In this document: piece by piece, positions 1 through 56,597 of the stretch
Numbering within the stretch: position 1 is the first letter of the stretch
How the letters are laid out: each line of letters starts with the position of its first letter
IMG/VR virus record: IMGVR_UViG_3300025759_000001
From: an uncultured virus (IMG/VR IMGVR_UViG_3300025759_000001)
Lineage: Duplodnaviria; Heunggongvirae; Uroviricota; Caudoviricetes; Crassvirales
Direction: 5' to 3' (one strand)
DNA: 64,000 nt
Translations under genes and position numbers: made by a program
The notes under the pieces: generated by a model
Seen by the model: only the letters and a program-made list of their open reading frames with translations
What the model was told of the DNA's origin: nothing
The model's database searches: none

Positions 1-1335
1 CTCCATACCTCCTTCATCTTGCACTGCGCTCTGGAAGTTTACAGTATCTTGAGGTCCTGTTGATACATAATTCTTATCCATGAAATCTTCTCTCACATCC
101 GGTACAGTGAATTCTTCTGATACTTTCTTTAATCCTAATCCAACTGGCTTCATTTCAGACTTAGTAAACTTAAGTTCCTTACCTGGTCCAAATATTGGGT
201 CAGTAATAGGATTACCAACTGGTTCTTTTGGATCTGTTAAATCACCACCAGTAGCAAATACGTTAGGATCTGCATCTTCTACACTTTTCATAAATCCACC
301 TAAAGCAAGTCTATTCGAGAATATATAGTCTCCGAACTTTACTTCACCTTCTTCAACAGTATTCATTTTACCATTGGACCCTGTTCCCATAGGAACTCCT
401 CCGTAAGGATTCTGCTCGTGTGTACCACCATTCTCTATTGGTATAATTTCTTTTTCTCCATTAAGACCAGCGAATCCACCCATTGCAAGTGTATTCATGA
501 ATCCAAGCTGATCCTCCATTGGTTTGCCAGCTAGTTCACCAGAGACAGGAGCCATCCTTTTAGGCTCATTTGGAATTAATCTAGCAATTGATTCAGCCTC
601 TTCATTTATTGGCTCATCTGTTATAGTTGGCTCAGCTGTTTCAGGTTGGACAGTGGGACCAGGTTTTTCACCCTCTTCAGAAACTTCTGGTGCTTCTTTG
701 CTTACGCCTTGACTATTCAAGTATTCTATATACTCGTCACTTCCTGCTTGAAATGTATCAGTTCTAATTATTTTACTCTCCTTAGGTTGCTTAACAGCTG
801 TCTTATCTTGTACTTTTACATTATGACCTGCCTCTTCAGGTGAAATCTTTTTAATTACATTTTTATTTCCAGGGGCTTTGGGCCCAAAAGCTTTATTAAA
901 CTTAGTAATATATTGTTGTACACTAGCATTCTTTCCAGGTACGACAAATCCTGATGGATTAGACAAGTACTTCTTTGCACCACCTTTACCTAGGAAATGA
1001 GTAAGAGCTGCAATCTCATGAAGATCCATGTCTAAATTAAACTTAGACTTTAATTCTTGCGCATATCCACTATAACTAGGGTATCCAGGTAATGTACCGT
1101 CTATGGCCATATCCATAATCTTCTCTTGAAGCTCGGGTCTATTTATAAATTCACGTATAGTTACACCCTTTAGTATAGGAGTATTTTTTATATATCTATA
1201 TAAGAAGTGATATCTACCGGCAGCAGAGCTAGTTGGATTACTTAAGTACTTTCCACCACTAGACTCCACATGAGCAATAGCACGTTTAAATGCCTCTCTA
1301 TCAAATCCTTTATCTTTATCTTTCTTGTCTGACAT
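1..1335 (-). CDS. Virion cargo/ejection protein (crAss cargo-protein-1-like) with N-terminal lysozyme/transglycosylase-like domain; runs off the window edge
   Basis: Not in the ORF track; translated by hand from ATG at 1335 (overlaps the upstream TAA). MSDKKDKDKGFDREAFKRAIAHVESSGG...SSAAGRYHFL...AALTHFLGKGGA is lysozyme-like. NGGTHEQNPYGGVPMG...VEEGE resembles the crAss protein downstream of the muzzle gene. AxGG motifs recur. Confidence 0.7.
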   Translation of the reverse strand, partial: MSDKKDKDKGFDREAFKRAIAHVESSGGKYLSNPTSSAAGRYHFLYRYIKNTPILKGVTIREFINRPELQEKIMDMAIDGTLPGYPSYSGYAQELKSKFNLDMDLHEIAALTHFLGKGGAKKYLSNPSGFVVPGKNASVQQYITKFNKAFGPKAPGNKNVIKKISPEEAGHNVKVQDKTAVKQPKESKIIRTDTFQAGSDEYIEYLNSQGVSKEAPEVSEEGEKPGPTVQPETAEPTITDEPINEEAESIARLIPNEPKRMAPVSGELAGKPMEDQLGFMNTLAMGGFAGLNGEKEIIPIENGGTHEQNPYGGVPMGTGSNGKMNTVEEGEVKFGDYIFSNRLALGGFMKSVEDADPNVFATGGDLTDPKEPVGNPITDPIFGPGKELKFTKSEMKPVGLGLKKVSEEFTVPDVREDFMDKNYVSTGPQDTVNFQSAVQDEGGME

Positions 1336-2018: not shown

Positions 2019-2073
2019 AGTTACAAATATATTAAAAACAACACCTAATTCCAATATTGACTATCACACAAAG

Positions 2074-37105: not shown

Positions 37106-39525
37106 TATTTAGATGTTGAAGGAGCAGGTTTATTTGCTACCTTATTCTTAATTGCTATTTCTTTATCTTTACGAGCCATCTGATCTCTATGCTTAGTCAT
37201 GTCGTTAGATAATCCTTTCTCTTTGATCCCTAACTCAGCTTTAAATTTCTCATAGTCTGCATCATCAGTATTGTTGCCCTCTGGCATATCTATACCAGCT
37301 TCCTCATTATCAATTTTGATACGATCTGTCTCAGCTTTTAACTCAGCAATATATCTTTTAGTCTCGTCTTCTTTATCAAACTCATAAGCAGCTCTTTCTT
37401 CATCTCTTTGCTCTTTAGCAGCTTGTTGCTCCATTAAAGCCTGAGCTTGTTTTTGTTCAGCTTCACCTTGAGCAGCTTGATTCTCTTTCATAGCTTTCTC
37501 ATCTTTCTCAATCATTCGTTGAACTTCACGTAATGAAGGTGAGTTGTACATTTTCATAGCAGCAGAGAATGTAATCATTTGGTTTTGTAAACCTAATTGA
37601 ATCATTCCATCTAATTTTTGTTGAATCTGGTTAATACCATCTTCATTAGATACTGCAAGACCATATTCTTCTTCAGCAAACTCATCACCATCAATCTCCA
37701 TGATCTGTCTAGTCATGTCGTCACCAATGTAAGAGAATTTTAATTCCTGACCCTTTAAAGCTATCTTAGCGGTTTCAATAAGTATTTGAAAACATCTCTT
37801 CTTGCAATAATCATGCAAAGTAAATAACTCTTCTGTGATGTGATTAGATTGAGACACCGCTCTCTCTATTCCACCCATAGTCTCTCTGTTCTCAGTTTGA
37901 CCAAGTCTTTGTCTTGAAACTCCAGTAATCTCGTCCATCTTAGCAGAAGCAAACTCCATCATCTCCATATGGACCTGAATGAAATCACCTATTCTTTGTT
38001 CAAGAACCTTACCAGTTGTATTTCCTACTGACCCAGCAAGTTTACCTTTTGCCATACCTTTCTGTCCTTCTTTGAAACTATCTACAACAGAAATACCTGA
38101 CTTACGTGCAAAGTATAACCATTTAGTAACATTCCAGCCAGTTGGTACTTTGGCTAAATCTAATTCAACAATAGACCCTAAGTATTTAGATAATGTTTCA
38201 TTCACCCTATACCATGATATATCAAACAGGTATTGGAATGGTTTGGCTCTATCTATCATAGATACTGCCTCTTGTTCGTTTGTATTATAAATCTGTCCAA
38301 CTATTCCACATGAATTGAATGAAGGCTCATTGATTTTATTATATTGTATTTCTCTAGGTTGGATCTTAACATAAGTATCTTTACCTACTTTAGCGCCTTT
38401 CCACCATTGTGTTACCCAGAATTTTTCTGAAGTCTCACCTTTATCTTTATCTAAAATATAATCCTCAGCTCTAAATTTAATCTGAGTTTTACCTAAGTCA
38501 TCAAAGTAAGTTACTTTTTGTATTTGCTTCATGGACTTCCAGAACATTCTAAGAACTCTAATATTTCCCGCGCCGTCTGTATAAGTGTTTCTTCCTTGAG
38601 ATCCACTTCCAGCGAATATTCCAGATGACTCTATGAAAGAATTTATTGTTTCCCTTTCATATATTTCCCATCCTTCTTTATCGTCAATTGCTAAATTTTC
38701 ACCATCTAAGTCTGTACCATCACCCCTGAATTCTCCGTTGTCTAACTTCTTAACGTCTTTTTCCTTAAGGTCTGCATAGAATGTATCTTGTATCTTTCCG
38801 GGGCTCCAGAAGTCATCTATTACAATAACATCAGCATCTTCTATCATATTAGAATAGCCAGATCTTAACGTATGTACTTTGAGTGGATTTAATTTTTCAA
38901 ATGTAACCTTTCCATTTACAATGTCAAACATGTAAATTTCCTCACCCATAATAAGTGCATCTTTAAAGCCTTGTTGAAATTTAATTTTCATTTCAAGCTT
39001 CTCAATATAACTACGCATTAAAAGATTAGCTCTCTTCTCGCGTAGATCCTGGTAGTCAAAGTTTATGTAATCACCATATGCCTGAAGTTCTTTATCCAAT
39101 TCTTCGTCAGATAGGTCAGATCCAATGAACTCTTTAATCTTTGCTTGGATTAAAGCCATCTTATCTGTTTTAATCTTAGATATAGTGTCTGGATTAGTTA
39201 TTTGAACTGTCCAATCAAACTTACGTCTTTTTTCCTCACCTACAAGTACATTTACTCGTGGTGCTACGATTGGGTAATGCTGTATGGCATCTGGAACAAA
39301 GTGTTGCTCTAAACCACCTGGGTTAAGAACTAACTTCATATCGCGTAAATCTACCTTACCATTGTATAGGTCTAGGTTTATTTTTTTGTTTTTAAATTTT
39401 CTACGTATAATAGTATTATTTAAGTGACTATTATGGTCTGCCCAGTCTAGGTGGGATTGTCTCCATTTTGGCCCCTTTTGCTTAAAGGACAATTTCTGTC
39501 TTGGAAAACTTTTATCTGTTGACAT
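37105..39525 (-). CDS. Portal protein
   Basis: 806 aa; FPRQKLSFKQK, IQHYPIVAPRVNVLVGEE, GVSRQRLG, ERAVSQSNHITE; directly downstream of TerL. Confidence 0.92.
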   Translation of the reverse strand: MSTDKSFPRQKLSFKQKGPKWRQSHLDWADHNSHLNNTIIRRKFKNKKINLDLYNGKVDLRDMKLVLNPGGLEQHFVPDAIQHYPIVAPRVNVLVGEEKRRKFDWTVQITNPDTISKIKTDKMALIQAKIKEFIGSDLSDEELDKELQAYGDYINFDYQDLREKRANLLMRSYIEKLEMKIKFQQGFKDALIMGEEIYMFDIVNGKVTFEKLNPLKVHTLRSGYSNMIEDADVIVIDDFWSPGKIQDTFYADLKEKDVKKLDNGEFRGDGTDLDGENLAIDDKEGWEIYERETINSFIESSGIFAGSGSQGRNTYTDGAGNIRVLRMFWKSMKQIQKVTYFDDLGKTQIKFRAEDYILDKDKGETSEKFWVTQWWKGAKVGKDTYVKIQPREIQYNKINEPSFNSCGIVGQIYNTNEQEAVSMIDRAKPFQYLFDISWYRVNETLSKYLGSIVELDLAKVPTGWNVTKWLYFARKSGISVVDSFKEGQKGMAKGKLAGSVGNTTGKVLEQRIGDFIQVHMEMMEFASAKMDEITGVSRQRLGQTENRETMGGIERAVSQSNHITEELFTLHDYCKKRCFQILIETAKIALKGQELKFSYIGDDMTRQIMEIDGDEFAEEEYGLAVSNEDGINQIQQKLDGMIQLGLQNQMITFSAAMKMYNSPSLREVQRMIEKDEKAMKENQAAQGEAEQKQAQALMEQQAAKEQRDEERAAYEFDKEDETKRYIAELKAETDRIKIDNEEAGIDMPEGNNTDDADYEKFKAELGIKEKGLSNDMTKHRDQMARKDKEIAIKNKVANKPAPSTSK

Positions 39526-39539
39526 ATTTCATATTTTTG

Positions 39540-39586
39540 TAAAAATAGTTCATTTTACTTTAATTATCATGCTATTATTATAGCTA
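39540..39586 (-). promoter_or_regulatory. Bipartite late promoter candidate for the portal operon
   Basis: TAGCTATAATA (overlapping the TerL stop), 28 nt, TATTTTTA. Confidence 0.55.
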
Positions 39587-41932
39587 TATTGTACTGTTCT
39601 TTTCCCAACCTGCTTTTTCCATTGCTTTATTCCAGTTATCATCCAAAAATGGATCATCATGAAAATGGTTAATTGGGTCTTCTATTTTGTTATCTTCAAA
39701 CTTATCTATATACCTCTTTCTATCTTCTCTAAGAATCATAACCATATCCATGGCTGAGACTCTATCTGTATTGATGTCAGGATTCCATGCTATACACTCT
39801 TTAATGTATCCTATACTTCTTATTCTTCGTAGATTAGGCACGCTAATAAGGTCATTATCACCAGTTTCTTCATTAAAAACCTCAAGTTCGTACTGGGATA
39901 ACATCCATTGTCTTTGTAATGTTTTTCCAAGTTTGATGACTTCAGCAGTTGTTCTAGTACCTTTAGATCTATTTCCATATAGTGTTGTTTTGACTATTTC
40001 CATATCTCTTAATATCTCTGGGCTGTCTGCTAGTAAATGCAGAGCACTCTTATTGGAAAAGTAAGTAAATAATCCTTTGAGGTTGTTTTCGTAATTAGCC
40101 TGAGCATTATAGAATTGAGTTAACCTCAAGCATTGCTCATAAAATGTATCAGCTAATACTGGTCTACCTGTATATTCAGCAACTATCTTATCAGTCCATA
40201 AATCAAATACAAATACACTAGCAAGAGATCCACCAATAGTATAATCATTATCAATAGGGTCAATCCCAGCAATGTATCTGTTACCAAACACTCTGCCATC
40301 TCTATCTTTCTCTGGCATTGAGAATATCTCTACTGCTCCATCAGATGTAGCTCCTTTTACTTTATATGGAAACTCTCTAATTGGTATAAGATCCTGACTT
40401 AGTTCCCACTTAATTAATCCTTTCTCGTCATAGGTTAAATTACCAACCCAATGCTCATCAACGAATCCTTGTAATCTAGGAAGTATATCTTCTAAGTAAT
40501 CTCTTAAATCTGCAACAGGAAATGCTGTACCCTGTGTACGCATAATAGCTTCTTGTGGAGTAATAGGTTCCTCAGCTTTCTTCTGTACAATTGCATTAGG
40601 ATCACTTGAGCCATACTTTACAATTGCTCTAGCTTTATTGATCTCAATCATAGCGCCTATTACATCACTATTTCCATTCTTGTCATACTTACCCGTGTAG
40701 TTTAAATATGTTCCGAAGAAGAATGCACATTCACCTTTACCAAATGCATTTCTATCAAACACATTAGGCATTGAGTATATATTATGTCCTACTGAATTAT
40801 AGAAGATTTCTTCTAATCCTTCGAATGCTCCACCTTCAACACCACCGGTACCACCTGCCATCATAAATCCAAATGCATATCCAGATTCTTCTACTGATGG
40901 TCTAGCAATTCCCCAAGCTGTAAGGAAGTCATCAAATTTACCTGCTTCTTCCCAGAGTACTAATGCACCCCTTTTACCCCTTGCTTTCTGTGGATCATTC
41001 TTAAGTGTAACACCAATCACTTCATTTAAGACTCCTACTTCAGTACCAGTCTTTGTATCTTTGCGCCCCATCCTCCAGTGCATGTCATTTAGGGAATCCT
41101 TTAATGAGCGTATACGAGGAAATGGAGTATGAGAGGCGCAGAAATCAATAGTTCCAATAAACTTATTAAGTATACCATCCTTTGTTAAATACTCTTTCTC
41201 ATTTGCTATCGCGAATGATTTAACTTTTTTCTTTGCTTTAGTTGTATCACCAAGTATAAAATTCTTAGCCATCATATTAGATGCCTTTACTGAATATCCA
41301 CAACCCCTTCTTTTAAGGTTAGCTCCATGCATACCATGAGCTCTTGCAATCTCTACGTAATGATAGAACCAGTAATCTGCATCATACACATATGGAAATG
41401 CTTCCACCCTGTCACTTTGCTTTGTACCATCAATAACTTCTGCTCTTAATAAAGGCGCGTAGTTTAATTGAAAGTAATAATTACCTGGTATCCATTCACC
41501 ATCACTATGTCTTATATAACCTTCTCTACAACGTCTAGCTTCTTCGGCCCAGAACTTATAATACTCTGAGTTAGGATTCTGATTAGGAAACAGCTTAGTA
41601 TAAGTACCATGCTTCTCAAAAAATATAGCTGCAGGCCTAAAGTAATCCATATCCTCTAGGATATGTGGATTAGTAAGCTCAACTGCTATTCTTCCTTTAG
41701 GATCAAGAACTCTAGTCTTCATCTTAGGATCATCAGACTGTAATGGCAAGAGAGGGTTCTCCCATCTTTCTAGATCAATAAGTCTAGGTCTCTTTGGATC
41801 AGCTAAGTTTTGAATAAACTGAATTGCATCTATATCAGCTAAGAGGTCAGTTCTTTCTTCCCTCTTCATTCCGATCAATAACTCTTCAGTTAGTTCTGTT
41901 TGTAGTTCGTTAAATTCCCTCATTAGTATCAA
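39584..41932 (-). CDS. terL: Terminase large subunit
   Basis: LKRRGCGYS Walker A, LVLWEEAG Walker B, GGTGG, YIAGIDP nuclease motif, NTDRVSA; uninterrupted. Confidence 0.93.
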   Translation of the reverse strand: MILMREFNELQTELTEELLIGMKREERTDLLADIDAIQFIQNLADPKRPRLIDLERWENPLLPLQSDDPKMKTRVLDPKGRIAVELTNPHILEDMDYFRPAAIFFEKHGTYTKLFPNQNPNSEYYKFWAEEARRCREGYIRHSDGEWIPGNYYFQLNYAPLLRAEVIDGTKQSDRVEAFPYVYDADYWFYHYVEIARAHGMHGANLKRRGCGYSVKASNMMAKNFILGDTTKAKKKVKSFAIANEKEYLTKDGILNKFIGTIDFCASHTPFPRIRSLKDSLNDMHWRMGRKDTKTGTEVGVLNEVIGVTLKNDPQKARGKRGALVLWEEAGKFDDFLTAWGIARPSVEESGYAFGFMMAGGTGGVEGGAFEGLEEIFYNSVGHNIYSMPNVFDRNAFGKGECAFFFGTYLNYTGKYDKNGNSDVIGAMIEINKARAIVKYGSSDPNAIVQKKAEEPITPQEAIMRTQGTAFPVADLRDYLEDILPRLQGFVDEHWVGNLTYDEKGLIKWELSQDLIPIREFPYKVKGATSDGAVEIFSMPEKDRDGRVFGNRYIAGIDPIDNDYTIGGSLASVFVFDLWTDKIVAEYTGRPVLADTFYEQCLRLTQFYNAQANYENNLKGLFTYFSNKSALHLLADSPEILRDMEIVKTTLYGNRSKGTRTTAEVIKLGKTLQRQWMLSQYELEVFNEETGDNDLISVPNLRRIRSIGYIKECIAWNPDINTDRVSAMDMVMILREDRKRYIDKFEDNKIEDPINHFHDDPFLDDNWNKAMEKAGWEKNSTI

Positions 41933-44491: not shown

Positions 44492-44849
44492 CTAAAAATT
44501 TCTTTCCATATCTTTCCTCATACATGTCTTCCCATTCAGTAATATGAGTATTATCTAAGTCTGTGTTACCACAATCCACACAGTAAGGCACAATGGCTTT
44601 ATCTTTACTGCTTATTGCTCCATCCTTGGGAAATGAAACTTCTTTAATGTGTAATTTTAAGCATGTCTTACAGTACGTTACTGGGACATTATTGTAATCT
44701 TGTTTTTTAGTTATCATATTTAATAATTTTAAATCATTTATAATGTCAGTATCGTATACTGGAAATGGTGCCATCATATTGGCGTGCTCTCTTCTTTTAA
44801 TTTCTTTGGTTAATTCTTTTTTATCCATAATTATAATTTTATAGCACAT
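44481..44849 (-). CDS. Zn-finger protein conserved in crAss-like phages
   Basis: YNNVPVTYCKTC...YCVDCG...EWEDMY. Confidence 0.65.
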   Translation of the reverse strand: MCYKIIIMDKKELTKEIKRREHANMMAPFPVYDTDIINDLKLLNMITKKQDYNNVPVTYCKTCLKLHIKEVSFPKDGAISSKDKAIVPYCVDCGNTDLDNTHITEWEDMYEERYGKKFLDEK

Positions 44850-46393
44850 CCAGTCGTAAGGATTGTCCCAGCAACTGATGCAGCATTCTCGAGCGCTACT
44901 CTAGTTACTTTCTTAGGATCAATAATACCCATATGCGTCATATTTACATACTTACCATCTTTAGCATCATATCCATTAACTGTTGCATGTATGTTGTTCT
45001 TTATGTTGCTAATAATAACATCGCCACTAACTCCAGCGTTCTCACATATTGTGATTATCGGAGCTTTGCAAGCTTCTTTAAGAAGGTTAATTCCTTTTTG
45101 CTCTGTCTCATGTCTAACATCTTCAATATGATCAATAGCATTAAGCAAAGCAATTCCTCCGCCTGGTACAACACCTTCTTCTAGCGCAGATATCACAGCT
45201 TCTTTTGCATCAATAACTCGATCCATCTTTTCTTTCATTTCTACCTCAGAATTACCTCCAACATAGATTACAGCAATGCCACCAGAAAGTTTTGCTATTC
45301 TATTTTCTAATTGTTTCTTATTGAACTCTGATTTTTCTATTTTGATTTTATCATTTAACTCAGAGACTCTATTTTTGATATCCATCTCTATCCCTTTAGC
45401 TCCAACTATTACAGTACTGTGTTGAGTCACGTTAACTGTATCTGCTTGACCTAAATATGATCCATCAAATTGATCTATGAATTCAGACTTACAAACTATT
45501 GCTCCAGTTTGATATGCCATGTCTTGTAGTATTTCTGCTCTCTGACTACCAAAGCCTGGTGTCTTGACAGCAACAACTTGCACTCCTCCTCGTGTCTTGT
45601 TCATCACCAATGTTGCAAGTGCTTGTCCTTCTATGTCTTCCGCTATTATTAGTAGCGGTCTTCCTGTCTTGGTTACGGCTTCCAGTGTAGGCATAACATC
45701 ATCAACAGCATTTAACTTCCCATCGACCAACATAATATATGGGTCTTTGTAAGTCACTTCCATTGCCTCTGGATTAGTAGAAAAGTAAGGAGAAGTCATT
45801 CCTCTATCGAATTGCATTCCATCAACTACTTCTATGTAAGTATCTTGGCCTTGTCCTTCTTCCACAGAAACTCCACCTTCTTTACCTACTTTCCCAAAGG
45901 CTTCAGCAACTAACTCACCAATGGCTTCATTGTTGTTTGCAGAGATTGTAGCAATTTGTTTAATCATTTCTGAATCTGTATCAACAGGTATAGAAATTGA
46001 ATTGATATATTCAACTGCCTGCTTGACCCCGAAATCTATCCCCTGCTTTAATTCATTAGGATCATATCCAGCCTCTACAAGCTTTAATCCATATTTCATT
46101 ATACACTGCGCTATTACAGTAGCGGTTGTAGTACCATCACCTGATCCTTGTTCTGCTTGCTCAGCAACGTCTTGAATAAGCTGTGCACCCATGCTTTCAA
46201 ACCTGTCAACAAGAGTTATACTCTTAGCAACTGTTACCCCATCTTTAGTTATTATTGGCAGGAAGTCTACTCCTCTATCAATGATAACATTCTTTCCTTT
46301 GGGCCCCAAAGTAATCTTTACTGCATTTGCCAAAGCATCAACACCTTTCTTGATGCTTTGTCTTGCCTCTGTTTCATATTTAATATTCTCCAT
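44831..46393 (-). CDS. groEL: Chaperonin GroEL (phage-encoded)
   Basis: TLGPKGKNV, ITKDGVTVAK, GDGTTTA, GMQFDRG, LLIIAED, RIAKLSGG, VVPGGG, IIDPKKV; lacks the C-terminal GGM tail. Confidence 0.96.
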   Translation of the reverse strand: MENIKYETEARQSIKKGVDALANAVKITLGPKGKNVIIDRGVDFLPIITKDGVTVAKSITLVDRFESMGAQLIQDVAEQAEQGSGDGTTTATVIAQCIMKYGLKLVEAGYDPNELKQGIDFGVKQAVEYINSISIPVDTDSEMIKQIATISANNNEAIGELVAEAFGKVGKEGGVSVEEGQGQDTYIEVVDGMQFDRGMTSPYFSTNPEAMEVTYKDPYIMLVDGKLNAVDDVMPTLEAVTKTGRPLLIIAEDIEGQALATLVMNKTRGGVQVVAVKTPGFGSQRAEILQDMAYQTGAIVCKSEFIDQFDGSYLGQADTVNVTQHSTVIVGAKGIEMDIKNRVSELNDKIKIEKSEFNKKQLENRIAKLSGGIAVIYVGGNSEVEMKEKMDRVIDAKEAVISALEEGVVPGGGIALLNAIDHIEDVRHETEQKGINLLKEACKAPIITICENAGVSGDVIISNIKNNIHATVNGYDAKDGKYVNMTHMGIIDPKKVTRVALENAASVAGTILTTGCAIKL

Positions 46394-47959: not shown

Positions 47960-48142
47960 TCACAAACTTTTGTTATATAAGTCCTCTTTTATTTTCTTTT
48001 CCAAAAGCTTTAATCTATGAACCTCATCTCTATAAGCCATACTTGCTCTACGGGATAGTTCTTTCCACTTAGTTAAGTCACCAGCTTCTTTGGCTTCTTG
48101 CATTTGTTCATTAAAACTTCTCTCAGATTTTTTATTTAGCAT
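47960..48142 (-). CDS. Hypothetical protein
   Basis: 60 aa, helical and charged; TATCTTTA element upstream. Confidence 0.5.
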   Translation of the reverse strand: MLNKKSERSFNEQMQEAKEAGDLTKWKELSRRASMAYRDEVHRLKLLEKKIKEDLYNKSL

Positions 48143-48198
48143 TATTTTTCGTATATTTACTAAAGATACAAAATATAAATGTTAAAAACAATATAAAA

Positions 48199-48435
48199 AT
48201 GGATTTAGATAAAGAATTTAAAAAATTAAATTACGCATTAGATAGTTACGCGTGTAAGCATCATGCTGATTATGAGGAAAATGTAAATGAAGGAAGTGTT
48301 ACTCTTTTGCTATTGGACTCAGGAGAGATGCCAATACTGACCCACAAGGCTGTTTACGGAGAAAACTTTGAATCAGATATTACGGGCTTCAAAAAACAAG
48401 CGATTAAATTTTGTAGCCATGTCAAAGTTTCTTAA
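48199..48435 (+). CDS. Hypothetical protein
   Basis: 78 aa; A-rich leader; TATATTTA at 48152-48159. Confidence 0.55.
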   Translation: MDLDKEFKKLNYALDSYACKHHADYEENVNEGSVTLLLLDSGEMPILTHKAVYGENFESDITGFKKQAIKFCSHVKVS

Positions 48436-48631
48436 AAAGAAAGAATGTAAATTTGATCACACTAAATTTTATAGATTTGTTTACAATGAAATAAGCATAC
48501 TAGTTGAAAAGGAAGTGTTTAAAAAATTTGACTATGAAACAGATAAAGCTCTGATGTTTAGTGGGGGTTCCAAACCTAGTGAGAGTTATAGACTTGAGAT
48601 ATTCGACATAACAAAGCCTACTGAGAAGTAG
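48419..48631 (+). CDS. Hypothetical protein
   Basis: Likely start MSKFLK at 48419; followed by a terminator. Confidence 0.5.
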   Translation: MSKFLKKKECKFDHTKFYRFVYNEISILVEKEVFKKFDYETDKALMFSGGSKPSESYRLEIFDITKPTEK

Positions 48632-48639
48632 GCTTTTTT
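48613..48639 (+). terminator. Terminator between convergent genes (possibly bidirectional)
   Basis: AAAGCCTAC-TGAGAA-GTAGGCTTT plus a T-run. Confidence 0.7.
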
Positions 48640-48654
48640 AAGTTTAATTTCTTT

Positions 48655-48879
48655 CTAGAGATACTTAAAAAAACTGTAAATTGCAATGACTATTTGAGAA
48701 ATTTTTGAATGTGGGAAGAATTCTAAGAAGAATATTACATATAGTGGAAGAATTATGCGAATAATAAACATTAAATACCCAAGAGTCCTTGGAATGAACA
48801 TAATGTTGGTTGGGGTTGTCATTCCAAAGACTACAAAGGCAAATGTGCCTAGAACTTTAGAGAAATTTATTCTTTGCAT
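48655..48879 (-). CDS. Small membrane protein
   Basis: 74 aa, hydrophobic; preceded by the bipartite motif (48883-48929). Confidence 0.55.
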   Translation of the reverse strand: MQRINFSKVLGTFAFVVFGMTTPTNIMFIPRTLGYLMFIIRIILPLYVIFFLEFFPHSKISQIVIAIYSFFKYL

Positions 48880-48959
48880 AGGTAAAGATAACTATAAAAT
48901 AAAATAACTAGCTATGGCATTATAGCTAAAGAAGTTTTTTTGCTGTGGTTTTCCCGTAA

Positions 48960-49175
48960 CTATCCAAAGTTTTCTTTCATTATGTCAGTAAAGGACTGCA
49001 AGTCGTCAATATAGTGATCATAAACTTTAACTTTACCCTTGTGAATTATAAATAAGTTCTTTAACATCACGTCCACAGTGCTACTCCTACCAAACCCACT
49101 GGACTTAATCCACAGTTCTTTTGTACTATTCCAATGGAAGTTATAACTCTCTAGGACTTCTCTATATGTCTTCAT
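48960..49175 (-). CDS. Hypothetical protein
   Basis: 71 aa; TATCTTTA 4 nt upstream of the ATG. Confidence 0.55.
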   Translation of the reverse strand: MKTYREVLESYNFHWNSTKELWIKSSGFGRSSTVDVMLKNLFIIHKGKVKVYDHYIDDLQSFTDIMKENFG

Positions 49176-49865
49176 CAGCTAAAGATACAATTTTTTTTTT
49201 TAATAATTTTTTTTTAAGTTGAAAATATAGTCGTACGCTAGATAAACCACAACTTCACCCCCACTCTTTTTATATTTTGGGTATAGGGGTAGTGATTTTG
49301 TCACACCTAACCCAATTAGTTTCATCAAGCTTATTGCTTGAAGATTCTTATTCTTGTCTAGCTAGTCGTAGCTAAGACTTAATTAACCTACGAGAGGTGA
49401 AGAGTAATGAATGAGTGTGGAGTGAACACCACATAACTAATTGGGTATATTCTATTATCATGACCTAATGATTGATAATAACAACACCATGCGTATTACA
49501 TTCAAACACCCTTGTCCGAGGTGCTATCACATGCCTCATTGAGGATGATGCTAAGTGGACACAACACATGTCATCAGCCCTTTGTGGTACTAGTTAAATG
49601 ATGCATTAACACTCTATGCTAGTAAGGAGTGTTATTTTAAGTTGCATTACCCCACTAGGGACTACGTAAACAATGCAATAAACACTATGGTAGTAGCGGT
49701 GGATTAACAGGTTTATATCGCAAGCATTACAATTGCAGTTCATGAAGGTTATAAGGATATTCTAGAATATCTAAACTTAAGAAATGAAACATTTTTGTAA
49801 AGTGGGTCAGATATAATCCCTGTTAGTCAATTTGGCTTAAATAAATCACTTAAAACAATATAACT

Positions 49866-50081
49866 ATGAAAACAACACTACAAGTAATTCAGATGATATC
49901 ATTAATGTGGATGACACTATTTATGATGATTACTCTCTATGCCGTTAATTGGGGTAGAAGAGAATTTACTAATGATGCTATGCTTGACTCATTGTATTGG
50001 CAAGGCTTATTGCTTGCAATCTTATTAGTTTGCAAGTTTGGTATCTACTTAACTAACAAGTATAAAATTAGCAAGAAATGA
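49866..50081 (+). CDS. Small membrane protein
   Basis: 71 aa, two TM segments; first clear gene of the plus-strand arm. Confidence 0.6.
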   Translation: MKTTLQVIQMISLMWMTLFMMITLYAVNWGRREFTNDAMLDSLYWQGLLLAILLVCKFGIYLTNKYKISKK

Positions 50082-50227
50082 GAGTTAAGATGAAACAAGA
50101 CAAATCACCTGCAAAGAAGACATTCATTGTGGGTGGAATGGTTGTATTTGCTGATTCACAAGAAGAAGCACTTGCAATGATTTCAGGAGTTGAACTAGAC
50201 AAGTACAACAAGCTTAAGAAAGTATAA
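50078..50227 (+). CDS. Small protein (49 aa, not in ORF track)
   Basis: MRVKMKQDKSPAKKTFIVGGMVVFADSQEEALAMISGVELDKYNKLKKV; ATGA overlap with the upstream stop; followed by a hairpin. Confidence 0.55.
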   Translation: MRVKMKQDKSPAKKTFIVGGMVVFADSQEEALAMISGVELDKYNKLKKV

Positions 50228-50441
50228 TTGTTCAGGGGAAGAAATTCTCCTGAATATAAAAACCTAAACTTCACAATAACTCTTATTATACATTGGGAAT
50301 ATATTATTCTCAATCACATCGTGTATACACACAATCTAGACGTAGTCGGGGATTGTATGAGAGATATGCGTAAATTCGGATATGAGAGGGAATGTAGGCC
50401 CTTGACGATGTGATTAAACTTTAACTAAATCATTTGAAATC

Positions 50442-50546
50442 GTGAGAAATCTTTATTACATTAATGGAAATGCAATAGTTGCTCGTTCATTACAGGAAGC
50501 GTTATTAATCAACAAAGAGGCAGAGCAAGTAGCTGTTGCCTCATAA
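50442..50546 (+). CDS. Small protein (34 aa, GTG start), paralog-like to 50078..50227
   Basis: MRNLYYINGNAIVARSLQEALLINKEAEQVAVAS; followed by a hairpin. Confidence 0.45.
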   Translation: MRNLYYINGNAIVARSLQEALLINKEAEQVAVAS

Positions 50547-50687
50547 ACATATAAGCATGATGAAATACTCATGCTTTAAAAAAACCTAAACTTTACTCCA
50601 ACTCTTATTATACTTTGGGAGTAATCAGTTTATTTCTAGGCTTCATGGAGTGCCTTTCTTAAAACTCTTATTAAATCTTTTAAAACT

Positions 50688-51158
50688 ATGAGCAAATCAA
50701 ATGTTCTTTCAAATCAGCCTATTGTAAAAGCTCACCCTGTAACAGGTGCAATTGTTACTTATTTTGATAACTCTAAAGGCGAAACCTTTGGTAAAATTCG
50801 TATTGACCAACGAGCCCCTGTTATCAATAATGGGTTTATGTCATTTGCTAACCGTTCAGCTTTCATCACTTTAGATGAATCAACTGCAAAGGAAATGGAA
50901 ACTATCCTTGAGGAAGACAAAGCTTATCCTATTCCAGGAAAGGTTGTTGTTACTGAATCTTTAACACCATTCTACGAGGGTCAAGAGCCTAAACGTAAAG
51001 GTGCGGAAGGAGAGGTAATTACTCACCTTGGTGCTTCTGTTTATCGTGACACTAACTATGTTTTTGACTTAGATGCCAAAGATACTTTGTTAGCAGGCGA
51101 CAGAGACGGAGTGGAAACACCTGTATCTGAAGAGGCAAACTCTGATGTAGCTGAATAA
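50688..51158 (+). CDS. Single-stranded DNA-binding protein-like (crAss type)
   Basis: Beta-rich 156 aa, GKVVVTESLTPFY...PKRKG motif, acidic C-terminal tail. Confidence 0.6.
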   Translation: MSKSNVLSNQPIVKAHPVTGAIVTYFDNSKGETFGKIRIDQRAPVINNGFMSFANRSAFITLDESTAKEMETILEEDKAYPIPGKVVVTESLTPFYEGQEPKRKGAEGEVITHLGASVYRDTNYVFDLDAKDTLLAGDRDGVETPVSEEANSDVAE

Positions 51159-51176
51159 TATTAGGCTAAACTTATT

Positions 51177-51206
51177 AACCCTGTTCTTAATTGAGCAGGG
51201 TTTCTT
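51177..51206 (+). terminator. Rho-independent terminator
   Basis: AACCCTGTTC-TTAATT-GAGCAGGGTT followed by TCTT. Confidence 0.65.
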
Positions 51207-51370
51207 ATTAACAACAAAAAAAATGGTTTGCAACAAGTTGCAATAAAATAATTATCAATGTAAAAACATTGATTATAAAACCCTAAACTTTACCTCCTCT
51301 CTTTTTATGCACTGCAGAGGTAAATACGAAACTCCCAGCAAGGTTTAAATACGAAAGAAAAAACAATATT

Positions 51371-51670
51371 ATGAACAACAAGAACACATTCGAGGTTGGT
51401 GATAAGGTTACTATACGTCAAGATAGTTATTATTGGGACACTCAGAGTCATACTGATGAGAATGCTCAAGGTAGATTAAGAGTGTTTGTTATAAAGAAGA
51501 TAGAAGGTGAGACATACAGTAGTGGTGATGGTGATAAAGGTGATTACTACATACATGCTCAAGATCCTTATGATGAATACTCTAATCAGTATAGATATGA
51601 AGATTTTGAGCTTTATGAGCCTGTTGTGTTAGTTAAATACGCGAAGAAGACGTTCAAGTTCATGGGATAA
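51371..51670 (+). CDS. Small SH3/KOW-like protein
   Basis: FEVGDKVTIR...YRYEDFELY; C-terminal YAKKTFKFMG. Confidence 0.6.
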   Translation: MNNKNTFEVGDKVTIRQDSYYWDTQSHTDENAQGRLRVFVIKKIEGETYSSGDGDKGDYYIHAQDPYDEYSNQYRYEDFELYEPVVLVKYAKKTFKFMG

Positions 51671-51741
51671 TACAAACACCCACCATTTAACCTCACTTCA
51701 CAAATAAAAACTAAAACTAACCTTATTAAATTATAGCTAAA

Positions 51742-52440
51742 ATGAAACAATCAATACAGGTAGTAATGCTACCAACAGAAGATAAGAGTCATTTACATTT
51801 AAAAGGAAATGGTAAATTATTTACTTATGTAAATAGTGTAAAAGGAACTAATAAGCTAATGGGTAGTCCAAAACTATCAGACCACAGGGTTGCTCAACAT
51901 GTCTACATCACAGTATCACAAGATGTAGAACCTATTAAAGAAGGTGATTGGCATATATTCAATGGTAGTGTGTTAGCTCAAGCTACAAGCAGGCATGGAG
52001 AATTAGGTAATCCATTTAACCGTAGAAAAATCATAGCAACTACTGACCCTAAGCTTACTGTTGAAACAGAGTTAAATGCTTATTACAGAAATGGTATAGG
52101 TGGGGCTAAAAAGATACCACAACTACCACAATCATTCTTAAAAGAATTTGTTGCTAATCCTGAAGGTAAGTGGGAAGTTGAGTATGAATTTAAAAGAGTT
52201 GAATGCCACAATTACAATGGAGAACATCTAGGTAAAGATTGTTCTTGTAAGTCAGGAGATTTTAGAGATGTTTATGAATTAAAACTAAACCAAGACAATA
52301 CTGTTAATATTACTTCTGTAAAAGAGAAGATGTATAATAGAGAAGAGGTTACTATATTATTTAACAAACTTAATAGTGATTTTGAAATATATTCTAATTA
52401 CAAAACAACTTTAGAAGATTGGATTAAAAAAAACTTATAA
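51742..52440 (+). CDS. Hypothetical protein of a Bacteroidota-phage family
   Basis: VVMLPTE, QHVYIT...IKEGDW, RKIIATTD, IPQLPQSFLKEFV motifs. Confidence 0.6.
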   Translation: MKQSIQVVMLPTEDKSHLHLKGNGKLFTYVNSVKGTNKLMGSPKLSDHRVAQHVYITVSQDVEPIKEGDWHIFNGSVLAQATSRHGELGNPFNRRKIIATTDPKLTVETELNAYYRNGIGGAKKIPQLPQSFLKEFVANPEGKWEVEYEFKRVECHNYNGEHLGKDCSCKSGDFRDVYELKLNQDNTVNITSVKEKMYNREEVTILFNKLNSDFEIYSNYKTTLEDWIKKNL

Positions 52441-52467
52441 TAAATAATTAATTAAAACCCAATAACA

Positions 52468-53028
52468 ATGAAAAAAATATTATTAGTATTAGCAATGGTG
52501 GCATTAACATTTGGAATGAATGCACAAGAAAAGTACGGAACTTACAAGTCAGGTACAATATCCGCAAGCGTAACCTTAGATGAAGGTAAAGTGTTTTTAG
52601 ACTTAACAAAAGACGGCAAGTACGGATTAATTTTAAAGCAAAAAGATAGGTTGGCCCTAACTACCTTTCTAAATGACTCAAGAATTAAGTTTATTGAGTG
52701 GTCTGAGAAAGCTGTTGCAAATTCAGTTAAAGACATTCATAAAGACATAGATGAGAAATCTTTTAGAGGTATTTTCAGCTATGGAGGTTGGAAGATTGGA
52801 ACATCAAGCTTAAGAACTATATTTTGGGTAGAAAAAGATGGAACTACAAACTTATACCTTTACGGCTCAGTAATGACTTCCTCTACTAATAGATATATGA
52901 AGTCTGATAGTGCGATGGTCATAATTACAAGCGAAGATGATTTTAATTCTTTGATAAATATTATTAGTGACAAAACAGTAAATGATTTTCTTGAAAAAAA
53001 GAAGACAGCTACTGATGTTTTTGACTAA
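52468..53028 (+). CDS. Secreted/periplasmic protein with signal peptide
   Basis: MKKILLVLAMVALTFGMNA-Q Sec-type signal peptide with Q at +1, a Bacteroidota trait. Confidence 0.7.
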   Translation: MKKILLVLAMVALTFGMNAQEKYGTYKSGTISASVTLDEGKVFLDLTKDGKYGLILKQKDRLALTTFLNDSRIKFIEWSEKAVANSVKDIHKDIDEKSFRGIFSYGGWKIGTSSLRTIFWVEKDGTTNLYLYGSVMTSSTNRYMKSDSAMVIITSEDDFNSLINIISDKTVNDFLEKKKTATDVFD

Positions 53029-53094
53029 AACAAACAATAAACACACCCTGAGTGATTGGGGAGTGTTATAAGGAGAAATACTTATAATAATACA

Positions 53095-53192
53095 TGACAC
53101 AGACATCCTAACTACAAGACGTTGTAGACTTCATACAAGGTATGAATAGCATTGATAAGCCCAGAAGGTGCAATGTTACGGGACCTGTGTTA
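53095..53192 (+). ncRNA. Candidate four-way-junction structured RNA
   Basis: Closing stem TGACACAG/CTGTGTTA enclosing three hairpins. Confidence 0.45.
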
Positions 53193-53215
53193 TATTAAAG
53201 AGTAATTAAAAAAGT

Positions 53216-53350
53216 ATGAATAACAAGAACAACAAAGACAAGTTAAATGAGTCAAGAGATGACTTTAACAACAGAGTAAGTAAACTCAAAGGACTAGGTA
53301 GCACAAAAGGTGTTAACTGGAAAAATAAACGAAGAAATAGACCAATTTAA
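53216..53350 (+). CDS. Small basic protein (44 aa, not in ORF track)
   Basis: MNNKNNKDKLNESRDDFNNRVSKLKGLGSTKGVNWKNKRRNRPI; A-rich leader. Confidence 0.45.
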   Translation: MNNKNNKDKLNESRDDFNNRVSKLKGLGSTKGVNWKNKRRNRPI

Positions 53351-53354
53351 AACT

Positions 53355-53567
53355 ATGAAGAAAATTGAATTCAAATTTCATCCAGGAGATGAATGCTTTA
53401 CTATAAATAATGGTAAAGTAAAAGAAGGATCTATCCACGAGACTAGCATCAAAATGGTTGGAGAAACCGTTGACATTAAATACTCTGTCCAATTAAAAGG
53501 AGAGAAGATTAATAGAACTGAAGATTATGTCTTCAAAACTAAAGACGAACTAATAGCTTCACTATAA
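53355..53567 (+). CDS. Small SH3-like protein
   Basis: Likely start MKKIEFKFHPGD at 53355; C-terminal VFKTKDELIASL. Confidence 0.6.
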   Translation: MKKIEFKFHPGDECFTINNGKVKEGSIHETSIKMVGETVDIKYSVQLKGEKINRTEDYVFKTKDELIASL

Positions 53568-53630
53568 TGAAGAAGCGTGTAAAAGAAAGAAGAGTAAAGG
53601 CATTTTTTTTAATAAAAGAAAAGAGAAGTA

Positions 53631-53975
53631 ATGGGATATTCCTATGAAGGCCATAATAAAGACTGGGATTATGATGAAACACCCAATCCGTGTTCTGAAA
53701 TACTTATGGAAGCTTCCCCTAAATCCATCGAAGATATGGTTCAGAATAGCGCTAAGTATAAGCCGAAAGACGTCGTCCAAATCAGACAAGAATACAGACG
53801 ACCAATAGAAGAAGTAGATATAAATGACTACAAATACATTGTCCATTCAGTAAAGTGGACAGATGATGGAATAAGATACACTTTAGAGAAAATGGGTACA
53901 ATATTAGACCCAACAGTTCCTGAAAGTGTTATTGAAATGATACCTATGTACCAACGTAGATCACTAAACTTATGA
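53631..53975 (+). CDS. Small protein with SH3-like C-terminal domain
   Basis: AKYKPKDVVQIR...; C-terminal YQRRSLNL. Confidence 0.55.
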   Translation: MGYSYEGHNKDWDYDETPNPCSEILMEASPKSIEDMVQNSAKYKPKDVVQIRQEYRRPIEEVDINDYKYIVHSVKWTDDGIRYTLEKMGTILDPTVPESVIEMIPMYQRRSLNL

Positions 53976-54199
53976 ATTATAAAGTAGGTGATCACGTTTG
54001 CATAGCTGGTGGTAGTACATATTATAAAGATCAAGCATTTGATTCATTTAATAAAACCAGAATATTTATTATAGAAGAAATGGATACCGAAGAGTACGTA
54101 TGTAAGTCGACGTCTGACGGATACGTAAATGTATACGAAGATGAAGATCTAGTAAAGATCTTACCAGTACTACACAATAAAAGAAAACTAAAATTTTGA
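53972..54199 (+). CDS. Small SH3/KOW-like protein (paralog of 51371..51670)
   Basis: YKVGDHVCIAGGSTYYKDQ...RIFII...NVYEDEDL; C-terminal HNKRKLKF. Confidence 0.6.
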   Translation: MNYKVGDHVCIAGGSTYYKDQAFDSFNKTRIFIIEEMDTEEYVCKSTSDGYVNVYEDEDLVKILPVLHNKRKLKF

Positions 54200-54205
54200 A
54201 AAACC

Positions 54206-54403
54206 ATGACACAACATTTAGAACAACATTTAGAACAATATGTAGTTGAAACACCAGCAGGTGAAATATTTAAAGTATTTGCAGAAAATGCATATGACGC
54301 AGAAAAACAAGTATTAGAAAAAATCAACTTTAAAAATACACTGGTGCATAGTACTACTACTGCATCATACGAGAAGTTTGATGCACCTGGATATATGCAT
54401 TGA
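54206..54403 (+). CDS. Hypothetical protein
   Basis: 65 aa; VFAENAYDAE motif. Confidence 0.55.
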   Translation: MTQHLEQHLEQYVVETPAGEIFKVFAENAYDAEKQVLEKINFKNTLVHSTTTASYEKFDAPGYMH

Positions 54404-54429
54404 TATATATCTATGTCTTAGAAGTTCTA

Positions 54430-54768
54430 TCAAGGAATGGGAATCATGAAGATATGCGAGGATAATACCGCCTCATGCTTCCCTGTACTCTTCGGAGACA
54501 TATAGAACCGGATGATTCGCTTCATTCCTTGAAGTAATTAAACTCTTTGATTGAAGATAAACAATAAATTGAAAATATTCCTATCGAGTCTTTAAAAGCG
54601 TGCTGGAGTTGACCTAAGCACAGGTAAAACGATTTATAAACTGTATCAGCAGTTGTGTTTATTGTAAATGTGTATGCATCAGATTAATAAACTATATGTC
54701 TGTTGAAAGAAGCAAAAGAAGTAGATACTCTTCTCATACATCCCATAGCTGAATTGGGCAAAGAGTTT
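54430..54768 (+). ncRNA. Candidate structured RNA(s), two domains
   Basis: 10-bp closing stems 54430-39/54523-32 and 54540-49/54759-68; C(TTCG)G tetraloop at 54490-54495. Confidence 0.45.
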
Positions 54769-54876
54769 TTTATTTAAAAATAAATTTATATAGGGATATG
54801 GTAAAACATGAATATAGTGTAATCACAGGCTCAAGTTATACTTGTGATCTGCTTAAAAAAAAAGAAGTATTAATCA

Positions 54877-55431
54877 ATGGTTTCAGAACAGAGCCTAAAA
54901 ACAGAAACAATGAAAAGAAAGGTAAAAATCGTTAGATCTAACGGAGATGTATATAAGGTCGACCCAGAGCATTCAATGCTTCTTCATAAAGGCAAAGACA
55001 AGCTTAAATTCTTACTTAATCAGATAATGGTGGCAACAGGTATAGATGTTACTCAGGACTTAAGAAAGAGAGAGATTGTATATTTAAGAGCAATCTATTA
55101 TAGATTAGCTATTGAATTAACCAGCTATTCATACGCAGTAATATCTAAGATTGTGAATAGAGACCATGCTTCAGTAACACATTCAATGACAAATGTCTGG
55201 GAAGAAATAGAAGATTATAGACCAGATCTTGTTGAAGTATATGAAAAGTTAGTGATAGATATGGATGATGAAGAGTTCATAAATCTAAAAGTGTTAAAGG
55301 TAAAGAATCAACTAAAAGAATTAGAGGAAACCCTTATGAATGTTAAGAGAGAGCTTAGTAAGGAGTATTTTTCAGTACAAGAACAATTAACAAATGTCAA
55401 AAAAGTTGCATACAATGAGATAGTAGAATAA
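54877..55431 (+). CDS. Protein with DnaA C-terminal (domain IV) HTH
   Basis: RKREIVYLRAIYYRLAIELTSYSYAVISKIVNRDHASVTHS matches the DnaA domain IV pattern; coiled-coil C-terminus; no AAA+ domain. Confidence 0.75.
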   Translation: MVSEQSLKTETMKRKVKIVRSNGDVYKVDPEHSMLLHKGKDKLKFLLNQIMVATGIDVTQDLRKREIVYLRAIYYRLAIELTSYSYAVISKIVNRDHASVTHSMTNVWEEIEDYRPDLVEVYEKLVIDMDDEEFINLKVLKVKNQLKELEETLMNVKRELSKEYFSVQEQLTNVKKVAYNEIVE

Positions 55432-55503
55432 GATATATCTTATCACTATAAGTTAATACATGTAACACCTTAAAACATTTCCTATTGATTCAATAGGTGT
55501 AAG

Positions 55504-55578
55504 TTTACGTTCGTCTAGGGGTTAGGACGCTTGCCCTCTTAGAGGCAGGAAACAAGAGTTCGAATCTCTTATGTAAAC
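55504..55578 (+). tRNA. tRNA-like gene with Glu-type body and abnormal anticodon arm (specificity undetermined, possibly pseudo)
   Basis: Acceptor TTTACGT/ATGTAAA, D-arm GTCTAGGGGTTAGGAC, T-arm AAGAG-TTCGAAT-CTCTT; anticodon arm CTTGCC-CTCTTAGA-GGCAGG (8-nt loop). Confidence 0.7.
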
Positions 55579-55940
55579 CTAATTATGCAGATTGGATTTT
55601 CTGTAATTTAGTTGGTTGGTTGGTTGATGAGGTGGAGATGATATCAAAGCCTCATTTTTTTAAGATCTTGATTATACTTTAGTCTAGTGGCTACGACACC
55701 AGCCTGATAAATAATCTATCAGTAACTTAAAAAATTTAGAGTTATTAGAAGCATGGGTTCAAGTACGGTAGCTCGGAGTCTCCGAGTGACCACAATAATG
55801 GGGGCGTTAAATTTCTTTTCCTTATAAAACTTCTATGTAATGTGCTTGATTGTCCCCTCTAAATTTTTAATTATCATATATATAGTGTATATAGTCAACG
55901 AAATTTAAAATATAAATTATAAACAGTAAATAAATAAATT

Positions 55941-56597
55941 ATGAAAAGTACAAACGAATTAAGAAAAGAATTTAGTGAAATTAAACATTTCAAATTTAAA
56001 AGTGTTTTAATATCTATTGCAATAGTTATAGGTCTTATGTTTCTGTTAACATCTTGTGAGGATAAATGTATACAAACAGTTGAGAAGGTTTACAAGAAAA
56101 CAAACACCTTTCAAGACCCAAGCCTATACAGTAGTGCGTCAACATCAGTAATGGATTTAGATGGAGACCACTACACAAGAGAGACTGCTTATATATGGGA
56201 TTATCTAGCTGATAATAAAAGGCATATAATTGCAAGTGGATGCTTAGATGCCGCAGATGAAAGATATACTTGTTTTTGGGCTAAAATTGAAGGAGATTTG
56301 TATCTAGAAGATAATAAGAAGTATAGTACTGTTAACGTAAATTTAGTTGTTACAGGTAGTATTACAGGTGGTGGTACTTTTACAGTAAATGGTCATAATA
56401 CTAAGTTAATTGTTGAAGGCGATGTTTCTGCTGAGTCAACAATAATAGTTAAAAATGGTTGTGAGTTAATAATAGAAGGTGGTAGTCTGAGTACTAATAC
56501 ACCTACTATGAGAGAGGTTCTTGAAGTACCATGTAGCTTAGATTTGACTAAGACATATACAGATGATAAAGGAAAGTTCACTTATAGACTAAAGTAA
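55941..56597 (+). CDS. Putative lipoprotein
   Basis: Hydrophobic segment ending in LLTSC lipobox; beta-helix-like VxGx repeats. Confidence 0.65.
   Translation: MKSTNELRKEFSEIKHFKFKSVLISIAIVIGLMFLLTSCEDKCIQTVEKVYKKTNTFQDPSLYSSASTSVMDLDGDHYTRETAYIWDYLADNKRHIIASGCLDAADERYTCFWAKIEGDLYLEDNKKYSTVNVNLVVTGSITGGGTFTVNGHNTKLIVEGDVSAESTIIVKNGCELIIEGGSLSTNTPTMREVLEVPCSLDLTKTYTDDKGKFTYRLK

Follow-up and report, generated by a model that had tools for sequence, protein, structure and literature searches.

A four-copy candidate early promoter at the strand switch of a crass-like phage, with counterparts in phi14:2 and in Bacteroidota integrase islands

The DNA analysed here, a stretch of 64,000 nucleotides (nt) from IMG/VR virus record IMGVR_UViG_3300025759_000001 (hereafter the window), belongs to an uncultured crass-like phage in which four copies of a two-block motif stand at the start of the rightward early arm. 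Judging from their sequence and position, these copies are very probably early promoters, and we put the chance that they are read by the injected virion RNA polymerase (RNAP) of the phage at somewhat better than even. Each copy would open a short transcription unit of its own where the arm begins, the transcripts would begin with a stem-loop, and the preceding unit would close with a hairpin. The first copy would represent an ancestral element, here called P1, a single copy of which stands at the arm junction of phi14:2 and of further aquatic crass-like phages; the lineage of the window would have multiplied this signal to four copies, and recombination between the copies would shuffle small gene cassettes. 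The injected virion RNAP would be the most likely reader of the signal.

Few known phages are as abundant as the crassviruses, all of which, to our knowledge, carry a giant injected RNA polymerase. The motif is a candidate for the still unknown promoter of this enzyme. The presence of the same signal in the model phage phi14:2 makes this candidate testable, and the culturable phi14:2/Cellulophaga baltica system makes the question of what the polymerase recognizes a simple experiment. A literature search found no paper describing such a Crassvirales promoter, and the word "promoter" is absent from a 2023 review of Crassvirales.

Four copies of a two-block motif behind the strand switch

The window was assigned to a Steigviridae-like crass-like phage by PHROG and PDB searches, by identity of the head protein (47-52% to crAss001, cr106_1 and phi14:2, all Steigviridae) and by gene order, which follows that of phi14:2: a GroEL gene, a few small leftward genes, the strand switch and then rightward genes. 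The switch lies at ~49200, replication genes follow downstream on the plus strand, and all four motif copies fall within 2.1 kb directly past this change from leftward late to rightward early genes. A preliminary description of this DNA had placed the motif at the start of the early arm, and the synteny with phi14:2 confirms this placement.

The same description had reported a 38-nt motif, repeated four times outside credible genes, with two conserved blocks 5 nt apart. All four plus-strand copies are present, and a repeat search of the window returned one 47-nt family made up of these sites (Table 1). With up to 3 mismatches allowed, the two-block pattern occurs at 4 sites in 64 kb, compared with 0.28 expected from 100 dinucleotide shuffles, none of which (0/100) reached 4 sites; a position matrix run over both strands of the 64-kb window found no fifth copy. 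A spacer of 5 nt separates the blocks in each of the four window copies and, as a rule, in relatives as well, the exceptions being copy 3 of L001, L002 and L085 with 6 nt and a single L084 copy with 4 nt (loci and cellular genomes are cited by L and G numbers). However, the conserved motif proved to be longer than 38 nt: it begins with AACC, ~34 nt before an invariant G, and ends ~7 nt past this G. Its location outside genes held insofar as every copy lies between open reading frames (ORFs) that we take as genes, but two listed ORFs, 50228-50413 (+) and 50068-50313 (-), overlap copy 2. Each copy precedes a gene or a structured RNA, and an ORF is found 60-590 nt downstream of all four. The hairpins previously noticed before copies 2-4 were recovered by RNA folding (values for copies 2 and 3 in Table 1; before copy 4, -11.0 kcal/mol, z -2.5), and the stretch before copy 1 gave no fold (z +1.4).

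A motif search in related genomes, which had been proposed as a check on the motif, recovered copies in relatives as well as in phi14:2. Of 9 related IMG/VR loci, 3 retain the four copies in the same order (contigs with an 88-90% identical early protein). In a complete relative of 98.4 kb, the sole matches to the pattern at no more than 1 mismatch are three of these copies, and the fourth (copy 3, with a 6-nt spacer) was detected by the position matrix alone. An exact-core scan of IMG/VR returned 31 loci, with a full-length match only in six loci from the three contigs that keep all four copies, and a metagenome scan yielded at least 12 further contigs with genuine copies. The 27 distinct ungapped instances from metagenome relatives give the consensus aAACC.aAACTT.Ac..c.aCTCTT.TTAT..tttGgg.ata, or schematically AACC-nn-AAC-TTyAc-N4-6-CTCTTwTTAT-N5-G, in which the invariant G stands 6 nt past TTAT and information is at background ~7 nt beyond the G. 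Among distant relatives of the 156-amino-acid (aa) early protein encoded behind copy 3 (L004-L009), the motif or an obvious repeat of their own was found at that place in 0 of 6. One of them, L005, contains ~19 tandem 69-nt units at 1897-3242, apparently within a coding region.

P1 at arm junctions and in Bacteroidota integrase islands

At the strand switch of phi14:2, an AACC box is followed by a 9-nt gap, CCCCCACTCTTTTT, five bases and TTGGGG, with spacing equal to that of window copy 1. This element lies at ~97996-98047, upstream of g111, the first rightward gene; no repeat was found in the first 9 kb of the phi14:2 record, whose early arm begins at ~98 kb. A P1 scan of IMG/VR, with a pattern that demanded the C-rich block and TTGGG, returned 15 loci, namely phi14:2, three relatives of the window, six more crass-like contigs (two of them ~102 kb long) and five copies of an unrelated coding sequence. 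In all seven non-window lineages, P1 is present as a single copy and stands exactly at the leftward-to-rightward switch, 30-70 nt before the first rightward ORF. T-runs are found 40-70 nt upstream of P1 in all phage lineages, and comparable runs occur in a set of bacterial islands that share the element.

These islands were detected by BLAST of 49236-49300 against 401 Bacteroidota genomes, which gave 9 weak matches, one of them (in G203) a full-length element. Within the same family as G203, matches were present in 13 of 301 genomes, and the whole architecture, consisting of T-runs, an AACC-type box, a C-rich block, a stem-loop and an ATG ~35 nt on, in 3 of 301 (G203, G531 and G637). In all three, the element heads a 113/114-aa ORF together with AAA_24 and DUF3871 proteins. 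An integrase is found near it in G203 and G531 (L324); G531 also encodes an AAA_25 protein, and G637 (L323) has a divergent HTH_17 gene and a DUF5906 protein. The unit in G203 spans ~10 kb and is flanked by host genes (L308 6162-16704). By their sequence, the islands look like satellite-type elements. Primase/helicase-type genes, a methylase and homing-endonuclease domains were also observed in them.

A promoter that remains silent until a phage polymerase arrives would suit an integrase island. Tentatively, and with considerable doubt, we suggest that the element might be a promoter of the injected two-barrel RNAP which Bacteroidota islands have copied to a place before their replication module, the polymerase of the helper phage activating the satellite at infection. 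If this were true, the satellite would be switched on within moments of infection, without a repressor or anti-repressor, and the presence of the element in satellite-like islands hints at a new infection-sensing route for mobile elements.

An element common to phages and islands that otherwise show nearly no protein homology (1 weak match to phage loci among 8 island proteins searched) might also be a DNA site with no polymerase involved, for example one that marks a terminus or directs packaging, a site used in replication, or the operator at which a phage regulator binds. Satellites commonly carry the packaging site of their helper, the arm junction is where P1 is found, and two assemblies stop no more than 45 nt upstream of copy 1. 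However, four copies in the same orientation, each before a gene and three of them behind a hairpin, are unlike a packaging or origin site, and the island element has a promoter-like location ~35 nt before the first ORF of its module. By eye, the conserved block shows neither dyad symmetry nor an inverted repeat, and the stem-loops begin at the invariant G instead. The idea that the contig ends mark a physical genome end upstream of copy 1 was rejected as weakly founded, since the breaks fall on long T/A runs, at which assemblers break off. Altogether, a site of this type appears improbable.

Candidate transcripts and the polymerase that may read the motif

The invariant G is the predicted transcription start. 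When the first 37-49 nt from this G were folded for copy 1 and P1 elements, the first Gs were paired in a stem in all eight transcripts, and these 5' stems vary by lineage (GGGG/CCCC, GGGGA/UCCCC and GGGC/GCCC, with CGGG/CCCG in the islands). Units 2 and 3 begin with stems that, by eye, differ between the window and L002. The ORF-free stretch behind copy 1 is ~590 nt long in the window and ~190 nt in L002, and a strain variant in the DNA data skips 49636-49853. Within this stretch, an alignment of seven lineages reveals a conserved structured element composed of a hairpin at 49572-49576/49599-49603 with an invariant 22-nt loop and a second hairpin at 49610-49615/49626-49631. In the alignment, 98.9% of the cells pair, compared with 82.5% in shuffles and at most 48% in slid controls; 6 of the 13 pairs change on both sides, and the covariation score was reached by 0 of 500 shuffles. 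One pair alternates between U-A and U-G, which holds only if the plus strand is the RNA and therefore supports transcription on this strand. An Rfam scan of 48000-53000 with E up to 1 gave 0 matches. A preprint on phi14:2 describes abundant rightward non-coding RNAs from the long intergenic regions that head its early arm. In some lineages, a terminator-like U-run was observed behind the second hairpin of the structured element.

The promoter reading is supported by the position and orientation of the copies, by their conservation as islands between swapped cassettes and by the downstream RNA with compensatory changes. Structured RNA in the region, together with the lack of a U-run behind the hairpins before copies 2 and 3, which makes read-through conceivable, might instead suggest that the motif acts as RNA, as a processing site or leader element in one long transcript from copy 1. 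We give this very little credence: upstream of copy 1 and of the single-copy P1 elements, which open the arm, there are only leftward genes, no internal pairing was seen in the motif by eye, and its sequence is conserved without the compensatory pattern of the genuine RNA element.

If the copies are promoters, as we think, host RNAP has to be weighed as their reader. A sigma-70 pattern (TTGACA-16..18-TATAAT, at least 9/12 matches) occurs at 32 sites in 48500-56000, compared with 34.8 expected, and none of these starts within the copies on the plus strand; an 11/12 site does overlap copy 2, but only on the other strand. The primary-sigma consensus of Bacteroidetes consists of TTG near -33 and TAnnTTTG near -7. 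Support for it comes here only from the sequences in front of the phi14:2 middle genes g070, g075, g108 and g110, which contain TTG, 17-19 nt and TAnnTTTGTA, and from the statement of the phi14:2 preprint that these middle promoters resemble -35/-10 elements. According to the preprint, E. coli holoenzyme transcribes them. In the window, TATATTTACA-like boxes are found before late genes at 2031, 9395, 25430, 26401, 39547, 42581 and 43602, two of them (9395 and 42581) with TTG ~20 nt upstream. The motif resembles Bacteroidetes primary-sigma and phi14:2 middle promoters in an AT-rich stretch before the start that ends in TTTG or TTG, but its conserved blocks lie elsewhere and its register in the window is wrong: an exact TAnnTTTG is present in 0 of 4 window copies, copies 1-3 being one mismatch off in a shifted register. 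A TTG corresponding to -33, 17-21 nt upstream of the -7 box, was found in 0 of 4 window copies, 0 of 8 phage P1 elements and 0 of 3 island P1 elements.

In principle, host RNAP with its primary sigma factor, named as an alternative in the preliminary description, might use the copies as strong early promoters, the bases before the G forming the -7 box and the upstream part serving as an enhancer or factor site. The single mismatch in copies 1-3 and the A-rich runs upstream of copies 2-4 would agree with this, and a host promoter would equally appear in chromosomal islands. However, apart from the missing -33 TTG, the -7 boxes are poor in copy 4, phi14:2 and L280, and the best-kept letters fall outside the -7 position. 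The late promoters of the window and the middle promoters of phi14:2 fit the host consensus far better, although it is usually the early promoters read by host RNAP that fit it best. With a host -7 box, the start would also lie 5-7 nt further downstream, within the stem, so that the stem-loops beginning at the G would be cut, which favours a start at the G. In cellular genomes, the core pattern gave at least 120 single matches in scattered taxa, and among the matches listed only 1 of 120 scores at least 20 on the matrix, lying inside an ORF. Transcription of the copies by host RNAP, the main rival reading, seems unlikely, if by no means negligible.

The preliminary description had taken the copies for promoters of the injected virion RNAP. 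The promoter part of this claim is well supported, and with regard to the polymerase, we infer that the virion enzyme is the better-supported option, because the motif misfits the sigma-70 and Bacteroidetes geometry and because its ortholog heads the rifampicin-resistant arm of phi14:2. According to the preprint, gp66 of phi14:2 transcribes the rightward early class in the presence of rifampicin.

Several points weigh against this interpretation. Two of them speak for host RNAP, namely that an exact TAnnTTTG ends at the invariant G in 4 of 8 phage P1 lineages and that, according to the phi14:2 preprint, rifampicin moderately affected early transcription. The preprint also states that a common motif upstream of early transcripts was not detected and that in vitro gp66 shows hardly any transcription of double-stranded DNA. 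The first of these statements is compatible with the presence of just one P1 per genome, which, however, leaves the other early starts of phi14:2 unexplained. In crAss001 and four other crass-like records, the element was found at up to 3 mismatches in 0 of 5. As the pattern used to search for P1 had the C-rich block and TTGGG as fixed parts, the conservation of those letters is partly built in, whereas the position, spacing, AACC box and T-runs were not imposed by it. The 5' stems of copies 2-4 rest on reading by eye. RNA-library contigs on 48000-53000 comprise just two single 151-nt pieces of depth 2, both in the copy 1 leader (49347-49497 and 49588-49738), which may represent DNA carry-over and are a weak hint of transcription.

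Comparable systems are known from other phages. A review (PMC4496689) describes three early promoters of N4 that are read by its injected virion RNAP. As described there, N4 and the window have in common a small number of promoters with a phage-specific sequence unlike that of the host, clustered at the first-entering end in N4 and at the start of the early arm in the window, as well as a short stem-loop adjoining the conserved letters, the N4 virion polymerase preferring a single-stranded template. By analogy, the stem-loop at the invariant G may act as DNA in the manner of N4, opening the template for an enzyme that prefers single strands. However, the conserved part of the N4 promoters (-17 to +1) is an inverted repeat around a GC-rich heptamer at -11, whereas the conserved 34 nt of the window show no such repeat by eye and the stem-loop lies downstream; moreover, the virion RNAP is a T7-like enzyme in N4 and a two-barrel RNAP in crassviruses. 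For the Thermus phage P23-45, a preprint (10.1101/2022.12.01.518664) assigns AT-rich pre-early promoters to a two-barrel virion RNAP fused to the tape measure protein. The likeness, which is drawn from this description and not from the motif sequences, lies in a strongly conserved motif before the first-expressed genes and in relatives that share both motif and enzyme. Its 14 starts per genome were mapped (ONT-cappable-seq, ChIP-seq), whereas the window motif is known from sequence alone.

Transcription units, gene cassettes and further features

The hairpins are more plausibly terminators that close the preceding unit than promoter components, because their sequence, length and distance from the motif vary and copy 1 has none. 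Relatives carry other hairpins 0-20 nt from the motif in the position before copy 2, and L087, L091 and L133 have other hairpins where the window has that at 51254-51273. The modules between the copies vary as well. Copy 2 is a 42-nt island with 95% identity to L001 and L002, both of its flanks being unalignable; L002 has an 81-aa ORF where the window has its first cassette, and an extra 158-aa ORF between copies 2 and 3. A strain variant in a DNA run replaces 50303-50437, beginning directly behind copy 2. An ORF equal in length to the 34-aa ORF is present at L002 3250-3354, the DNA being 88% identical over 50423-50547, and in L133 a copy of the first class stands immediately before a homolog of the 156-aa gene.

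A stem-loop and a promoter-type motif were thus found at the borders of variable small-gene modules, with breakpoints at the motif. This arrangement resembles the PeSL (promoter-early stem-loop) cassettes of T4-type phages which, according to Arbiol et al. 2010 (PMC2839356), consist of a stem-loop terminator and a strong early promoter repeated around small non-essential genes and bound the differences between related genomes. PeSL promoters are sigma-70-like and number dozens per genome, whereas the window has four copies that are not sigma-70-like. The cassette structure explains the shuffling of the first early genes in these phages.

Two further short elements were seen by eye in the leaders of this region. 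In the leader of the 156-aa gene, an AGGCU-N8-GUGCCU hairpin at 50640-50660 (+) is kept in the window, L001, L002, L071, L076, L085, L087 and L091 while neighbouring bases vary, and it could be a translational operator. A AATACGAA-like short motif occurs twice in the leader behind copy 4 (51320-51365, +) in every lineage with copy 4.

Table 1. Coordinates of the motif copies and other features in the window
Feature	Position	Strand	Basis or remark
Motif copy 1 (class P1), opening the rightward early arm	49239..49285	+	Candidate start G 49279
Motif copy 2	50255..50301	+	Candidate start G 50295
Motif copy 3	50577..50623	+	Candidate start G 50617
Motif copy 4	51274..51320	+	Candidate start G 51314; then 99-aa ORF 51371-51670
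Divergent spacer: two T-runs, and a conserved stretch that adjoins copy 1 upstream	49186..49238	.	Read from sequence; assemblies break here
ORF-free leader or non-coding RNA behind copy 1	49279..49865	+	No ORF of at least 60 aa
Conserved structured RNA element, two hairpins	49572..49631	+	Alignment of 7 lineages
First cassette, 71-aa and 49-aa ORFs	49866..50227	+	ORF list; DNA unalignable with L001/L002
Hairpin ending unit 1, directly before copy 2	50229..50256	+	-16.0 kcal/mol, z -6.1
34-aa ORF, GTG start	50442..50546	+	Read from sequence; no Pfam family
Hairpin ending unit 2, directly before copy 3	50553..50576	+	-8.9 kcal/mol, z -4.0
156-aa early protein, function unknown	50688..51158	+	88-90% identity in relatives
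Canonical terminator after the 156-aa gene	51177..51202	+	-16.1 kcal/mol, z -6.0
Two more hairpins, 51228-51243 and 51254-51273, the second abutting copy 4	51228..51273	+	RNA fold
Muzzle protein, like crAss001 gp44	2074-6153	-	PHROG/PDB searches
Major head protein (MCP)	14632-16131	-	PHROG/PDB searches
Portal	37105-39525	-	PHROG/PDB searches
Large terminase (TerL)	39584-41932	-	PHROG/PDB searches
GroEL-type chaperonin	44831-46393	-	PHROG/PDB searches; phi14:2 counterpart g105, same place

A cargo-protein domain is found at the start of the window, and the virion polymerase gene is placed beyond this start, outside the analysed 64 kb. On the minus strand at 49215-49235, back to back with copy 1, there is a TATATTTTCA box that resembles the host-type -7 boxes of the late genes and may, by its sequence, act as promoter of the leftward gene 48960-49175. 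When 48900-52500 was compared with 50,697 phage records by blastn, no match was obtained, and the sequencing runs that contain the stretch are labelled freshwater, estuarine or marine.

A tRNA with a four-base anticodon (ctta) and unassigned amino acid was predicted by ARAGORN at 55504-55579 (+) and may be a suppressor or frameshift tRNA; a comparable odd tRNA (taat) occurs in the early region of crAss001. At its right end, the early region of crAss001 has repeats of its own beside tRNA-like pieces, and a gap next to a TROVE gene. These repeats were considered as an equivalent of the window motif and rejected, their partial CTCTT likeness being in the opposite arrangement and taken as chance. 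The gap itself (95965-96869) is a 900-nt ORF-free stretch by the TROVE-domain gene, with the tRNA-like pieces and five copies of a ~24-nt repeat, and may be a Y-RNA-like partner of the TROVE protein.

Downstream of the copies, the 232-aa protein encoded at 51742-52440 (+) has no relatives in IMG/VR. Its gene shows many variant joints in DNA runs and a very uneven summed contig depth (up to 431 compared with ~20-40 nearby in run X6), which suggests that it contains a domain that is repeated or widely shared in the community.

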